From Escherichia coli (GTDB lineage Bacteria; Pseudomonadota; Gammaproteobacteria; Enterobacterales; Enterobacteriaceae), in NCBI RefSeq assembly GCF_024700885.2, contig NZ_CP117016.1: a stretch of DNA of 64,000 nucleotides; one strand, 5' to 3'. The translations under genes were made by a program, and so were the position numbers. The notes beneath the pieces are model-generated. The model searched no databases. It was given only the letters and a program-made list of their open reading frames with translations, and was not told where the DNA came from. Positions 27,729 through 44,666 of the stretch are shown one piece after another. How positions within the stretch are numbered: the stretch's first letter is position 1; the number at the start of each line of letters is the position of its first letter.

Positions 27729-29873
27729 GTGTCCCGTATTATTATGCTGATCCCTACCGGAACCAGCGTCGGTCTGACCAGCGTCAGCCTTGGCGTGATC
27801 CGTGCAATGGAACGCAAAGGCGTTCGTCTGAGCGTTTTCAAACCTATCGCTCAGCCGCGTACCGGTGGCGATGCGCCCGATCAGACTACGACTATCGTGC
27901 GTGCGAACTCTTCCACCACGACGGCCGCTGAACCGCTGAAAATGAGCTACGTTGAAGGTCTGCTTTCCAGCAATCAGAAAGATGTGCTGATGGAAGAGAT
28001 CGTCGCAAACTACCACGCTAACACCAAAGACGCTGAAGTCGTTCTGGTTGAAGGTCTGGTCCCGACACGTAAGCACCAGTTTGCCCAGTCTCTGAACTAC
28101 GAAATCGCTAAAACGCTGAATGCGGAAATCGTCTTCGTTATGTCTCAGGGCACTGACACCCCGGAACAGCTGAAAGAGCGTATCGAACTGACCCGCAACA
28201 GCTTCGGCGGTGCCAAAAACACCAACATCACCGGCGTTATCGTTAACAAACTGAACGCACCGGTTGATGAACAGGGTCGTACTCGCCCGGATCTGTCCGA
28301 GATTTTCGACGACTCTTCCAAAGCTAAAGTAAACAATGTTGATCCGGCGAAGCTGCAAGAATCCAGCCCGCTGCCGGTTCTCGGCGCGGTGCCGTGGAGC
28401 TTTGACCTGATCGCGACTCGTGCGATCGATATGGCTCGCCACCTGAATGCGACCATCATCAACGAAGGCGACATCAATACTCGCCGCGTTAAATCCGTCA
28501 CTTTCTGCGCACGCAGCATTCCACACATGCTGGAGCACTTCCGTGCCGGTTCTCTGCTGGTGACTTCCGCAGACCGTCCTGACGTGCTGGTTGCCGCTTG
28601 CCTGGCTGCCATGAACGGCGTAGAAATCGGTGCCCTGCTGCTGACTGGCGGCTACGAAATGGACGCGCGCATTTCTAAACTGTGCGAACGTGCTTTCGCT
28701 ACCGGCCTGCCGGTATTTATGGTGAACACCAACACCTGGCAGACTTCTCTGAGCCTGCAGAGCTTCAACCTGGAAGTTCCGGTTGACGATCACGAGCGTA
28801 TCGAGAAAGTTCAGGAATACGTTGCTAACTACATCAACGCTGACTGGATCGATTCTCTGACTGCCACTTCTGAGCGCAGCCGTCGTCTGTCTCCGCCAGC
28901 GTTCCGTTATCAGCTGACTGAACTTGCGCGCAAAGCGGGCAAACGTATCGTTCTGCCGGAAGGTGACGAACCGCGTACCGTTAAAGCAGCCGCTATCTGT
29001 GCTGAACGTGGTATCGCAACTTGCGTACTGCTGGGTAATCCGGCAGAGATCAACCGTGTTGCAGCGTCTCAGGGTGTAGAACTGGGTGCAGGCATTGAAA
29101 TCGTTGATCCAGAAGTGGTTCGCGAAAGCTATGTTGGTCGTCTGGTCGAGCTGCGTAAGAACAAAGGCATGACCGAAACCGTTGCCCGAGAACAGCTGGA
29201 AGACAACGTGGTTCTCGGTACGCTAATGCTGGAACAGGATGAAGTTGATGGTCTGGTTTCCGGTGCTGTTCACACTACCGCAAACACCATCCGTCCGCCG
29301 CTGCAGCTGATCAAAACGGCTCCGGGCAGCTCCCTGGTATCTTCCGTGTTCTTCATGCTGCTGCCGGAACAGGTTTACGTTTACGGTGACTGTGCGATCA
29401 ACCCGGATCCGACCGCAGAACAGCTGGCAGAAATCGCGATTCAATCCGCTGATTCCGCTGCGGCCTTCGGTATCGAACCGCGCGTTGCTATGCTCTCCTA
29501 CTCCACCGGGACTTCTGGTGCTGGTAGCGACGTAGAAAAAGTTCGCGAAGCAACTCGTCTGGCGCAGGAAAAACGTCCTGACCTGATGATCGACGGTCCG
29601 CTGCAGTACGACGCTGCGGTAATGGCTGACGTTGCGAAATCCAAAGCGCCGAACTCTCCGGTTGCTGGTCGCGCTACCGTGTTCATCTTCCCGGATCTGA
29701 ACACCGGTAACACCACCTACAAAGCGGTACAGCGTTCTGCCGACCTGATCTCCATCGGGCCGATGCTGCAAGGTATGCGCAAACCGGTTAACGACCTGTC
29801 CCGTGGCGCACTGGTTGACGATATCGTCTACACCATCGCGCTGACTGCGATTCAGTCTGCACAGCAGCAGTAA
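27729..29873 (+). CDS. pta: Phosphate acetyltransferase
   Basis: 714-aa ORF; GTG start preceded by SD agagga; matches Pta. Confidence 0.96.
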
Positions 29874-40869: not shown

Positions 40870-41050
40870 TCTTTACGACAACAGTAACATTCAACGTTAA
40901 ATATGTTAATAAGACGTTGCATTATTGTCCTAAAGTTGAAGATAGCAGGTATGGCGGTTGAATCGCAGCGTTTCGATTCATCGAAAGGAACAAAATGTCG
41001 AGGATTTGATCGCGGTTGCAAAATTGCCCTGAAACAGGGCAACAATGAGG

Positions 41051-41620
41051 TTATGCGCCCTGCCAGCGGGCAAAGAGATCTTCAGGAAGCGTTATGGCGA
41101 ATTGATCGAGTACACGGTTAACCGTCTGATTTATCACATCATCAAGGGATTGCGGGCGATGATAAAACGCCGGAACGGGAGGCATAATCACCGCACCGAT
41201 TTCTGCCGCCTGGGTCATTAAACGCAGATGGCCTAAGTGCAATGGTGTTTCACGCACGCAGAGCACCAGCGGGCGACGCTCTTTCAGCACAACATCTGCC
41301 GCACGGGTCAGTAAGCCATCAGTATAGCTATGGACAATGCCGGACAGGGTTTTGATTGAACAGGGTAAAATCACCATCCCCAGTGTCTGGAAAGAACCGG
41401 AAGAAATGCTGGCAGCAATATCGCGCGCATCGTGCGTCACATCGGCTAATGCCTGCACTTCGCGCAGGGAAAAATCCGTTTCGAGGGATAAGGTCTGGCG
41501 CGCGGCCTGGCTCATCACCAGATGCGTTTCAACATCTGCGACATCGCGCAGAACCTGTAATAAGCGCACGCCATAAATCGCGCCGCTGGCACCGCTGATG
41601 CCTACAATGAGTCGTTTCAT
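41051..41620 (-). CDS. ubiX: Flavin prenyltransferase UbiX
   Basis: 189-aa ORF; matches UbiX. Confidence 0.95.
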   Translation of the reverse strand: MKRLIVGISGASGAIYGVRLLQVLRDVADVETHLVMSQAARQTLSLETDFSLREVQALADVTHDARDIAASISSGSFQTLGMVILPCSIKTLSGIVHSYTDGLLTRAADVVLKERRPLVLCVRETPLHLGHLRLMTQAAEIGAVIMPPVPAFYHRPQSLDDVINQTVNRVLDQFAITLPEDLFARWQGA

Positions 41621-41714
41621 AAATAGTTGCCCTGTCAGACTTGCAGGCAGACTTTGCAGGATTTCGGCGGGAGTTGCAAGTCAGGGTGCCAGACCGGCAC
41701 CCTGAGCGAAGGCA

Positions 41715-43232
41715 TCATCCTTCGTTATGCATTTCGAGATTTTCCACTTCGTTCTGACGTTGCACTGCTTTGGCGTCGTCATTACGTAAAGTATCGAGGA
41801 AATCGAGGTAGCCCTGATCAACATCTTTGGTGACGTAAACGCCGTTGAACACCGAACACTCAAACTGCTGAATATCCGGGTTTTCAGCGCGAACGGCTTC
41901 GATCAGATCGTTCAGATCCTGGAAAATCAACCCGTCAGCACCGATGATCTGGCGAATTTCATCTACTTCGCGACCGTGAGCGATCAGTTCCGTGGCGCTC
42001 GGCATATCAATACCATAAACGTTCGGGAAGCGAATTTCCGGTGCCGCAGAAGCGAGATACACTTTCTTCGCTCCGGCTTCGCGTGCCATCTCGATAATCT
42101 GCTCAGAAGTGGTGCCACGGACGATGGAGTCGTCGACCAGCAGGACGTTTTTATCGCGGAACTCGGCGCGGTTGGCGTTCAGTTTACGGCGCACGGACTT
42201 ACGACGCAGCTGCTGGCCCGGCATGATAAAGGTGCGGCCAACATAGCGGTTTTTAACGAAGCCCTGGCGGTACGGCTTGCCCAGAATACGAGCAATTTCC
42301 AGCGCGATATCACACGAGGTTTCCGGGATCGGGATCACCACGTCGATATCCAGATCTTCCCATTCGCGGGCAATTTTCTCGCCCAGTTTCGTACCCATAT
42401 TCACACGCGCGCTGTAAACGGAAATTTTGTCGATGAACGAGTCCGGGCGAGCAAAGTATACATACTCAAACAGGCACGGATTGCTGACCGGATTGTCAGC
42501 ACATTGACGGGTAAACAACTGCCCTTCTTCAGTGATGTAAATCGCTTCGCCCGGCGCGACGTCACGCAGGAAATCAAAGCCCAGCGTATCGAGCGCTACG
42601 CTTTCGGAAGCGACCATATATTCTGTACGGTTCTCGTCAATATCACGTTTTCCCAGTACCAGCGGACGAATCCCGTTTGGATCGCGGAAAGCAACCATAC
42701 CATGGCCGATAATCATCGCCACGCAGGCATACGCGCCGCGGATTAAGCGGTTTGTGGCAGCAATGGCAGCGAAAATATTGTCGGCTTCCAGCGGGTAGTG
42801 GCGGAAGTTGTCCAACTCGCTGGCGAAGATATTAAGCAGAATTTCCGAGTCGGAAGTGGTGTTGATGTGGCGGCGTTTTTCTTCAAACAGTTTTTTACGT
42901 AACTCATGCGCGTTGGTCAGATTGCCGTTGTGGGCAAGCGTAATGCCATACGGAGAGTTAACGTAAAACGGCTGCGCTTCAGAGGCGCTGGAGCTGCCAG
43001 CCGTAGGGTAACGCACATGACCAATGCCCATATTGCCCTGCAAACGCTGCATATGGCGAGCTTCAAATACATCGCTCACCAGCCCGTTCGCTTTACGCAA
43101 ACGGAAGCAGTTATTGGCATCTATGGTGATGATGCCGGCGGCATCCTGACCGCGATGCTGAAGCACCGTTAAGGCATCATAAATCGACTGGTTAACCGGC
43201 ATAACACCGGCGATACCGACAATACCGCACAT
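41715..43232 (-). CDS. purF: Amidophosphoribosyltransferase
   Basis: 505-aa ORF with N-terminal MCGIVG Ntn-amidotransferase motif. Confidence 0.96.
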
Positions 43233-43268
43233 ACGTCTTTTTCCTCGTTAAGCCACATCTCAGAGCAC

Positions 43269-43757
43269 TTACGCTCTGGGCAAGAAACTTGACGAGCTTT
43301 GCAGATAATCAAAAAACCATCTGATGATAAAACTGAACTGCGGGATCAGCTGTGATTTGCTCCAGTCTTCGCTTTTCGACACCCCGGTAAAGGAGTCGAG
43401 AAAGAAGAGAATGGCGGCAACAATCAACACACCGCGCAACGCACCGAAACAGACGCCCAGCACCCGATCGGTGCCTGACAACCCCGTTTTCTCCACCAAC
43501 TGGCCTATCACGAAGTTCACGATAGCACCAACGATCAGGGTAGCGATAAACAGTACCGCGATGGCAATCCCATTTCGAACCAGTTCGTCTTCAAAGCCCG
43601 TAAACCAGACTGACAGGTAAGTGTAGTAATGACTGGCAACAAAGAAAGCACAACCCCATGTCACCAGCGATAACGCTTCACGAACAAAGCCGCGGATCAG
43701 GCTAACCAGAGAGGAAAAAGCAATCACCGCGATTATGGCGTAATCAATCCAGACCAT
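43269..43757 (-). CDS. cvpA: Colicin V production membrane protein
   Basis: 162-aa membrane ORF. Confidence 0.94.
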   Translation of the reverse strand: MVWIDYAIIAVIAFSSLVSLIRGFVREALSLVTWGCAFFVASHYYTYLSVWFTGFEDELVRNGIAIAVLFIATLIVGAIVNFVIGQLVEKTGLSGTDRVLGVCFGALRGVLIVAAILFFLDSFTGVSKSEDWSKSQLIPQFSFIIRWFFDYLQSSSSFLPRA

Positions 43758-43815
43758 ATGTGTCCCACGATTTTACGCCCTGTCATCCTGTTCGGGGCGC
43801 ATTCTAACAGAAAAA

Positions 43816-43831
43816 GAAAACGTTTGCGTAG
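43816..43831 (-). promoter_or_regulatory. PurR operator (PUR box) of the cvpA-purF-ubiX operon
   Basis: Minus strand reads ACGCAAACGTTTTCTT, matching the PurR box consensus; located 60-75 bp upstream of cvpA. Confidence 0.65.
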
Positions 43832-43920
43832 GGATTTCCTTCCCGCGCATCAATAAAAATGGCGCTGAAAAAATATTCAACGCCATCGACTTTTTATGCC
43901 TTTGCGGCATCGGACAATGC

Positions 43921-44008
43921 GTGTCGGATGCGGCGTAAACGCCTTATCCGACCTACGGCTCTACCCCTGCGCAGGCCTGATAAGACGCGCCAGCGTCGCA
44001 TCAGGCAA
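43921..44008. repeat. BIME with two REP palindromic units between cvpA and dedD
   Basis: gtgtcggatgcggcgtaaacgccttatccgacctac and gcctgataagacgcgccagcgtcgcatcaggc. Confidence 0.6.
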
Positions 44009-44015
44009 GACCGTA

Positions 44016-44666
44016 TTAATTCGGCGTATAGCCCATTACCACGCCACTTAAGCCAGAAAGTTGCTTCAACTCACCCAGCGAACCTTTCAGCTTATCTTTC
44101 GAGGCATCTGGCCCAACCAGAATACGGGTAATTTTGCCCTGCACTGGCGTGGATGGCGACGTATAAACCCGATAACCGGCACCGCGCAGCTTACCGACAA
44201 TCTCATTCACTTTATCGGCATTTTTCAGTGCGCCCAGTTGTACAACATAGGCTTTACCCGTTGGCGCTGCTTTTTCTTCCACGACCGGCTTCGGCGCAGG
44301 TGGTGCTTCAACCTTCGGTTTAGGCGACTCCACCGGTTTCGGCTTCGGTGGGGCGACCGGTGCAGGTTCCGGTTCAAACTCGGTGTTATTGGCTGCAATA
44401 GTGGCCGGATCGAGCGACGGTGCTGCGGCATCACCTGCCCGCACCTCTTCCGCTGCGCCTTCCGGCGGCTGCGTCGGCAACGCCTGGGTGGCGGCTGGCA
44501 TCATATCAGGCTCATCGCGATCGCCAGCTTTCGGCACCAGCGGGATAGCCGCGAACTCATCCTGATAATGTTTTTTCTGCCCGTCCAGCAGCCCTGGAAG
44601 TACAATCACCCCCAGCGCCACCAGCACGATCGTGCCCACTAACCGATTCTGAAACTTACTTGCCAC
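44016..44666 (-). CDS. dedD: Cell-division protein DedD (SPOR domain, Pro/Ala-rich linker)
   Basis: ORF 44016..44684; probable GTG start at 44666 (VASKFQNRL...); overlaps the folC stop. Confidence 0.88.
   Translation of the reverse strand: MASKFQNRLVGTIVLVALGVIVLPGLLDGQKKHYQDEFAAIPLVPKAGDRDEPDMMPAATQALPTQPPEGAAEEVRAGDAAAPSLDPATIAANNTEFEPEPAPVAPPKPKPVESPKPKVEAPPAPKPVVEEKAAPTGKAYVVQLGALKNADKVNEIVGKLRGAGYRVYTSPSTPVQGKITRILVGPDASKDKLKGSLGELKQLSGLSGVVMGYTPN

Follow-up and report, generated by a model that had tools for sequence, protein, structure and literature searches.

Gene organization of the cvpA-purF-ubiX locus

According to the RefSeq annotation of identical DNA, the window, by which we mean the whole stretch of Escherichia coli DNA analyzed (64,000 nt, or 64 kb), contains the genes usg-truA-dedA-accD-folC-dedD, cvpA-purF-ubiX and argT-hisJQM in that order, each on the minus strand. 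Both the open reading frame list and the annotation place cvpA (43269..43757, minus strand, 162 aa) as the first gene of its unit. It is followed after 36 nt by purF (41715..43232, minus strand, 505 aa), which encodes amidophosphoribosyltransferase, and purF is followed after 94 nt by ubiX (41051..41620, minus strand, 189 aa). PurF carries out the first and committed step of de novo purine synthesis. The three genes share a strand and are closely spaced, with a promoter and operator before cvpA and a terminator-like hairpin after ubiX, and a scan of the window found no terminator or promoter between cvpA and purF.

Upstream of the cvpA promoter, the terminator scan identified an intrinsic terminator of the folC-dedD transcript at 43848..43887 on the minus strand (hairpin 43887..43858), consisting of a 12-bp stem and a T run. 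The hairpin has a folding energy of -18 kcal/mol (z = -3.8), and other genera retain it although the sequence has changed. This terminator insulates the cvpA promoter from the transcript of the preceding genes.

The PurR operator upstream of cvpA

The 16-mer ACGCAAACGTTTTCTT occurs exactly once in the window by string search, on the minus strand at 43814..43829, with its central CG at 43821-43822. This is the PUR box through which PurR acts on the cvpA-purF promoter, classically named the “purF operator”, and it spans positions -72 to -57 with respect to the A of the cvpA ATG (43757), leaving 56 nt in between. The original prediction had placed a consensus PUR box at 43816..43831, 60-75 bp upstream of cvpA. 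A real 16-mer is indeed present within the interval considered (43758..43860), but the true site is offset by 2 nt from those coordinates and begins 57 nt, not 60, before the start codon, reaching to 72 nt upstream of the ATG. A documented regulatory site was in this way recognized from sequence alone, with a 2-nt slip in its coordinates.

When compared with the palindromic consensus ACGCAAACGTTTGCGT, the box agrees at 14 of 16 positions, and the central CG is present. The left half-site is perfect, while the right half, GTTTTCTT, carries two mismatches, so that the word consensus slightly overstated what is nevertheless a very good site.

The strength of the match was assessed with a weight matrix based on Table 1 of Cho et al. 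2011 (PMC3159470), for which the cvpA site itself was left out and the 27 remaining PurR motifs were used. With this leave-one-out matrix the cvpA-purF box scores 21.75 bits, which is the top score in the window by 8 bits and places the box at rank 11 among the 28 ChIP-defined PurR sites. The exact P value for this score is 1.9e-8 per position, corresponding to 0.0024 sites expected in the 128,000 positions of the window and to about 0.17 chance sites in an entire E. coli genome. Of 500 windows simulated with a Markov model, only 2 reached the same score. A search with the 12-mer core GCAAACGTTTGC allowing 3 mismatches was uninformative, giving 39 matches where 45 were expected, and was set aside in favor of the full-length matrix; because the core search performs at chance level, the signal must reside in the full 16 bp.

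Two weaker matches in the window deserve mention. The runner-up, ACGAACGCCTTTGCGT (27812..27827, minus strand), scores 13.5 bits and is absent from the ChIP-chip list; it is probably a chance match, as the mean maximum of the simulated random windows is 15.7 bits. The sequence ACCAAAGCGATGGCAT (54180..54195, minus strand) is the weak motif under the fabB-mnmC PurR ChIP-chip peak (Cho et al. 2011, PMC3159470). It scores just 12.96 bits despite being part of the matrix and is a marginal site.

PurR binding and regulation in published work

By ChIP-chip, Cho et al. 2011 observed a PurR peak for “cvpA-purF-ubiX” with the motif AAGAAAACGTTTGCGT, which was seen only with adenine, and they class this peak among the previously characterized PurR regions (PMC3159470). 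AAGAAAACGTTTGCGT is the reverse complement of the 16-mer in the window, and in both cases the motif starts 57 nt from cvpA. The E. coli purF operator of that study (PMC3159470) and the box described here are therefore identical with respect to the 16 bp, the distance to cvpA, the gene neighborhood and the organism, and no difference was found between them. Purified PurR binds the cvpA-purF regulatory fragment from -171 to +56 in an EMSA (PMC5829826). On the side of expression, Cho et al. 2011 count purF among the genes of the IMP pathway that PurR-hypoxanthine represses (PMC3159470), and in the Pur-1 iModulon cvpA and purF co-vary with other PurR targets (PMC8376909).

The motif, its position in the control region and its conservation among orthologues were thus all found by sequence analysis, and binding and expression are provided by published work. 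The claim that a PurR operator lies upstream of cvpA-purF is confirmed, since the site is the same as that of the ChIP-chip motif (PMC3159470) and lies in the fragment bound by EMSA (PMC5829826); when its position was compared with the mapped operator, the documented operator proved to be this very site (PMC3159470). Purine repression of cvpA-purF is established, and nothing found contradicts the operator assignment. It is with very high confidence that we regard 43814..43829 on the minus strand as the operator by which PurR controls the E. coli cvpA-purF(-ubiX) promoter, shutting off the first step of the pathway when purines are plentiful.

The box is the “purF operator” for which several papers cite Rolfes and Zalkin 1988 and the crystal structures of PurR bound to DNA. 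The operator is already known and long documented as the archetypal PurR operator, and there is no new biology in the operator itself. Its importance lies in that it controls purF, and with it the committed step of the pathway, and in that it is the reference operator defining PurR-DNA recognition.

Conservation of the operator and promoter block

Conservation was surveyed in one genome per species (GTDB set), using a degenerate DNA pattern that represents the N-terminal end of CvpA, so that the search was blind to the operator. The scan gave 120 loci, 115 of them encoding CvpA, and in 106 of these 115 purF follows cvpA, in genomes ranging from Enterobacterales to Shewanella and methanotroph symbionts. 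A set of 70 Enterobacterales species loci was defined by a CvpA at least 75% identical to that of E. coli and at least 120 nt of upstream DNA. Each of the 70 contains a PUR box of at least 17 bits, located 41-179 nt (mostly 53-69) from the cvpA ATG, and the 607 kb of these loci hold no further site of that strength. Conservation in related genomes, which the original prediction had offered as a check on itself, therefore holds throughout this set.

In most of the Enterobacterales loci the 16-mer of the box is the same as in E. coli. Photorhabdus, Proteus, Providencia, Morganella, Moellerella and Arsenophonus have ACGCAAACGTTTTCGT instead, which scores 24.7 bits; this orthologous site of the Morganellaceae and Photorhabdus is nearer to the consensus than is the E. 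coli box. Conservation extends past the box. In an alignment of 24 genera, the 32-nt block TACGCAAACGTTTTCTTTTTCTGTTAGAATGC (43799..43830, minus strand), comprising box, spacer and -10 element, stands out as a phylogenetic footprint that is near-invariant, while both flanks diverge. Within it the sequence TTAGAAT is invariant or nearly so across the 24 Enterobacterales genera. The strain from which the window derives is not necessarily K-12; still, of 5426 complete E. coli genomes, 5401 carry a match of at least 99% identity to a 42-nt query over the block, as a single chromosomal copy, and the 1.5-kb stretch around the box recurs with 100% identity in many complete genomes of the species.

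Outside the 70-locus set the picture varies. In Enterovibrio the same dyad is present but flipped, and six Aeromonas loci carry a diverged box, GCGCAATCGTTTTTGT or CCGCAATCGTTTTTGT, located 36 nt from the ATG. No box was found upstream of cvpA in Shewanella, Idiomarina, Zophobihabitans or reduced endosymbionts when the surveyed loci were scanned with the weight matrix. The flipped box in Enterovibrio and the relocated box in Aeromonas argue, at the level of sequence comparison, that the PurR dyad itself is under selection and not merely the promoter hexamer. These comparative data, namely the invariance throughout the Enterobacterales, the flip in Enterovibrio and the absence in Shewanella and Idiomarina, may be of aid in annotation.

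Promoter architecture and the proposed mode of repression

The promoter elements can be placed from the sequence with respect to the box. An apparent extended -10 element, TGTTAGAAT, lies at 43801..43809 on the minus strand (TG at 43809-43808, TAGAAT at 43806-43801), 7 nt downstream of the box. The candidate -35 element is weak: TACGCA at 43825..43830 on the minus strand, with an 18-nt spacer, matches at 3 of 6 positions and falls almost wholly inside the PUR box, within the near-invariant 32-nt block. The alternative candidate ACGCAA, with a 17-nt spacer, is also weak and also within the box, and there are no other -35 candidates. The cvpA promoter was not called in a generic sigma-70 consensus scan of the window, because its -35 element is weak, and the footprint across 24 genera was used in place of that scan. 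With these hexamers, transcription would start near 43794. Makaroff and Zalkin in 1985 and Rolfes and Zalkin in 1988 reportedly mapped the purF transcription start and promoter elements.

PurR belongs to the LacI/GalR family, and the order of events would be as follows. When hypoxanthine or guanine accumulates, the PurR dimer would bind the imperfect palindrome, where it would lie over the -35 position and over two thirds of the spacer in a promoter dependent on its extended -10 element. Bound PurR would keep RNA polymerase off the promoter and so lower transcription of cvpA and purF. As the box lies over the -35 position and 7 nt from the -10 element, blocking of RNA polymerase is the likely mechanism, and we infer that PurR acts at the cvpA-purF promoter by steric occlusion.

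Two readings of the locus that would deprive the box of this role can be weighed together. That the 16-mer resembles a PUR box by chance and has no regulatory role might be suggested by the many near-matches that the loose core search returned from the window at a chance level (39 against 45 expected). The full-length score, however, is expected only 0.0024 times per window, the 16-mer is listed as a ChIP-chip PurR motif (PMC3159470), the cvpA-purF fragment is bound in EMSA (PMC5829826), and the box is kept in 70 of 70 related species loci, where these are the sole strong sites in 607 kb. Published binding data and conservation have already refuted chance resemblance, and we assign it a vanishingly small probability.

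The other reading is that the block is conserved as a core promoter, with PurR having an incidental or minor part and purF being controlled mainly by ppGpp acting through the discriminator or by feedback inhibition of the enzyme. It draws on the overlap of the box with the -35 position in a block that is invariant from box to -10 element, an overlap which makes promoter and operator constraint inseparable within the Enterobacterales, and on the GC-rich GCGCCCC directly after the -10 element. GC-rich discriminators of this kind are typical of ppGpp-sensitive promoters. Yet the near-palindrome fits a matrix made from unrelated PurR sites, the dyad of Enterovibrio is found in the opposite orientation and the PUR-like dyad of Aeromonas at a different distance. 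In addition, occupancy in vivo is adenine-dependent (PMC3159470), and cvpA-purF co-vary with PurR targets in the Pur-1 iModulon (PMC8376909). Added control by ppGpp could operate alongside control by PurR and does not compete with it as an explanation. We therefore consider it very improbable that PurR is incidental here, and repression by PurR at the promoter is the reading adopted in what follows.

Relation to other PurR sites

According to Cho et al. 2011, PurR generally binds in the interval from -35 to -10 and affects initiation; the exceptions are purB and purR, where it forms a roadblock (PMC3159470). The boxes of purT, purHD, purL, purMN, purEK and purC likewise are 16-bp dyads with a central CG, placed in the -35/-10 region and acting on initiation, and their weight matrix scores are comparable, at 18.7-24.8 bits. 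The cvpA-purF box differs from others of the PurR regulon in its degenerate right half, which reads TTTTCTT where they have TTTGCGT.

The purB and purR roadblock sites (He and Zalkin 1992, as cited in PMC3159470) share with the cvpA-purF box the repressor, the motif family and the corepressor logic. However, they are located inside transcribed or coding DNA and block elongation, whereas the cvpA-purF box is upstream of the -10 element and should block initiation. A further comparison is offered by the distal PUR box of carAB P1, centered at -128.5, which is also 16 bp long, is bound by liganded PurR and is bent to a degree comparable to the purF operator (PMC6245113). From that site, which is far upstream, PurR cannot repress on its own (PMC6245113), while the cvpA-purF box overlaps the core promoter.

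Transcription of ubiX

The one point able to change the annotation is whether ubiX shares the purine repression of the genes before it, and its transcriptional independence is the minor question of novelty that the locus retains. The original prediction regarded cvpA-purF-ubiX as one purine-repressible unit. For cvpA-purF this is borne out by the PurR site and the Pur-1 iModulon; for ubiX co-repression is unproven and the data are mixed, and the operator box by itself cannot show it.

In the literature the unit is named cvpA-purF-ubiX (PMC3159470, PMC3141248). In vitro run-off arrays gave sigma70/sigmaS ratios of 1.85 for cvpA, 2.12 for purF and 1.90 for ubiX (PMC3141248). The Pur-1 iModulon lists cvpA-purF without ubiX (PMC8376909), and in a multi-stress meta-analysis ubiX is up-regulated, with cvpA and purF as down-regulated hubs (PMC9501238). 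Our searches of the literature for a ubiX promoter found none.

The purF-ubiX spacer contains two features. Just after the purF stop, at 41682..41704 on the minus strand, there is a stable hairpin (CAGGGTGCC-ggtct-GGCACCCTG; -20.2 kcal/mol, z = -4.4), which in E. coli has no U tract. Equivalent hairpins after purF are followed by T runs, and so are intrinsic terminators, in Erwinia, Pantoea, Tatumella, Rahnella, Rouxiella and Yersinia, and a terminator-like site is found in 20 of 42 purF-ubiX spacers. Next to the hairpin is a candidate internal ubiX promoter (41651..41679, minus strand), composed of TTGCAA at 41679-41674, a 17-nt spacer and CAAAGT at 41656-41651. Its pattern TTGCWW-N17-CAMAGT is present in 21 of 42 spacers and in 0 of 8400 shuffled spacers, although the count is inflated by shared ancestry, and in Yersinia and Rouxiella it lies downstream of the terminator. 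Loci with the spacer hairpin or motif include L021, L037, L040, L046, L059, L070, L076, L080, L082, L091, L111 and L121 of our survey. A sigma-54 reading of the purF-ubiX motif, prompted by its GGCA/TGCA strings, was rejected on inspection by eye, as the spacing misfits TGGCAC-N5-TTGCA and other genera lack the second element.

Downstream of ubiX, a terminator-like hairpin (GUUGCCCUG-uuu-CAGGGCAAU, then UUU) is located at 41020..41043 on the minus strand and is the likely 3′ end of the unit. It has a folding energy of -14.1 kcal/mol (z = -3.8) and falls below the T-run rule of a simple terminator scan. Among Enterobacterales loci with enough DNA, ubiX follows purF in 32 of 40.

The hairpin after purF and the conserved promoter-like motif together suggest that ubiX is partly transcribed on its own. 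The strong form of this idea is that the operator controls cvpA-purF, and that most ubiX expression comes from the internal promoter, downstream of a hairpin that stops or processes part of the purF transcript. Speaking for it are the -20.2 kcal/mol hairpin directly behind the purF stop, with full terminator equivalents in Erwiniaceae, Rahnella, Rouxiella and Yersinia and a terminator-like site in 20 of the 42 spacers, as well as the occurrence of the motif in 21 of 42 spacers against none of 8400 shuffles. The same is true of the looser gene association, ubiX being found after purF in just 32 of 40 Enterobacterales loci while the adjacency of cvpA and purF extends to Shewanella and beyond, and of the expression data, in which ubiX is absent from the Pur-1 iModulon (PMC8376909) and moves opposite to cvpA and purF under stress (PMC9501238). 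Against these stand the published name of the unit and the similar run-off ratios of the three genes (PMC3141248), the missing U tract, on account of which read-through into ubiX is expected in E. coli, and the quality of the motif, which agrees with the consensus at 7 of 12 positions and owes part of its conservation to shared ancestry. We regard a mainly independent ubiX as quite possible, if slightly the less probable outcome.

Under the reading that we retain for E. coli, transcription is likely to continue from purF into ubiX, and ubiX would probably have a weak promoter of its own besides. Purine repression of ubiX through read-through is then plausible, and it is probably diluted by the internal promoter. 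The further proposal that “cvpA-purF-ubiX” is in fact two overlapping units, a PurR-controlled cvpA-purF transcript partly ending or processed at the hairpin and a PurR-independent ubiX transcript from the weak conserved promoter TTGCAA-N17-CAAAGT, is a tentative one, which we hold at somewhat below an even chance. If it were true, ubiquinone cofactor synthesis would be largely uncoupled from purine repression.

Leader and upstream spacer of cvpA

The cvpA leader occupies 43758..43800 on the minus strand. It begins with the GCGCCCC that follows the -10 element, and a Shine-Dalgarno-like GGGA is located about 8 nt before the ATG. A possible 5′ leader hairpin (minus strand) would pair GCGCCC at 43800-43795 with GGGCGU at 43780-43775. 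In pair counts over 48 sequences, 81.5% of cells were paired against at most 49% for slid partners, a value reached by 0 of 500 shuffles, and some compensatory changes were seen. RNAalifold found no consensus structure, and the single-sequence fold (z = -0.1) was no better than shuffles. With the pair counts alone being suggestive, the hairpin is not claimed as a feature. A minor possibility is that the conserved GC-rich start of the leader provides a further level of control, either by forming a 5′ hairpin or by serving as a discriminator sensitive to ppGpp. An Rfam scan of 41000..44100 gave no known RNA family in the cvpA leader or the purF-ubiX spacer, the naRNA4 hits described below being sub-threshold only.

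The dedD-cvpA spacer contains REP-type repeats, with sub-threshold Rfam naRNA4 hits at 43919..44042, which together with the terminator separate the promoter from dedD. Two published in vitro signals fall in this spacer, at about 43758..44044 of the window. One is a sigma70-preferring run-off transcript upstream of cvpA in the opposite direction (probe IG2428784_2429041-f; PMC3141248), and the second, obtained by gSELEX with the RpoN holoenzyme, is a weak peak at MG1655 position 2,429,072 (PMC8743547). Inspection by eye of the same interval revealed no convincing plus-strand promoter.

In Erwinia (L037, L046 and L090) and Rouxiella (L111) the leader between the promoter block and the ATG is expanded to 99-179 nt. 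The expanded leaders contain long inverted repeats, for example CAGGTCGCCTCCCTCTG...CAGAGGGATACGACC, with the operator and the -10 block remaining intact, and they could reflect the insertion of a small repeat element or a leader that folds into a structure.
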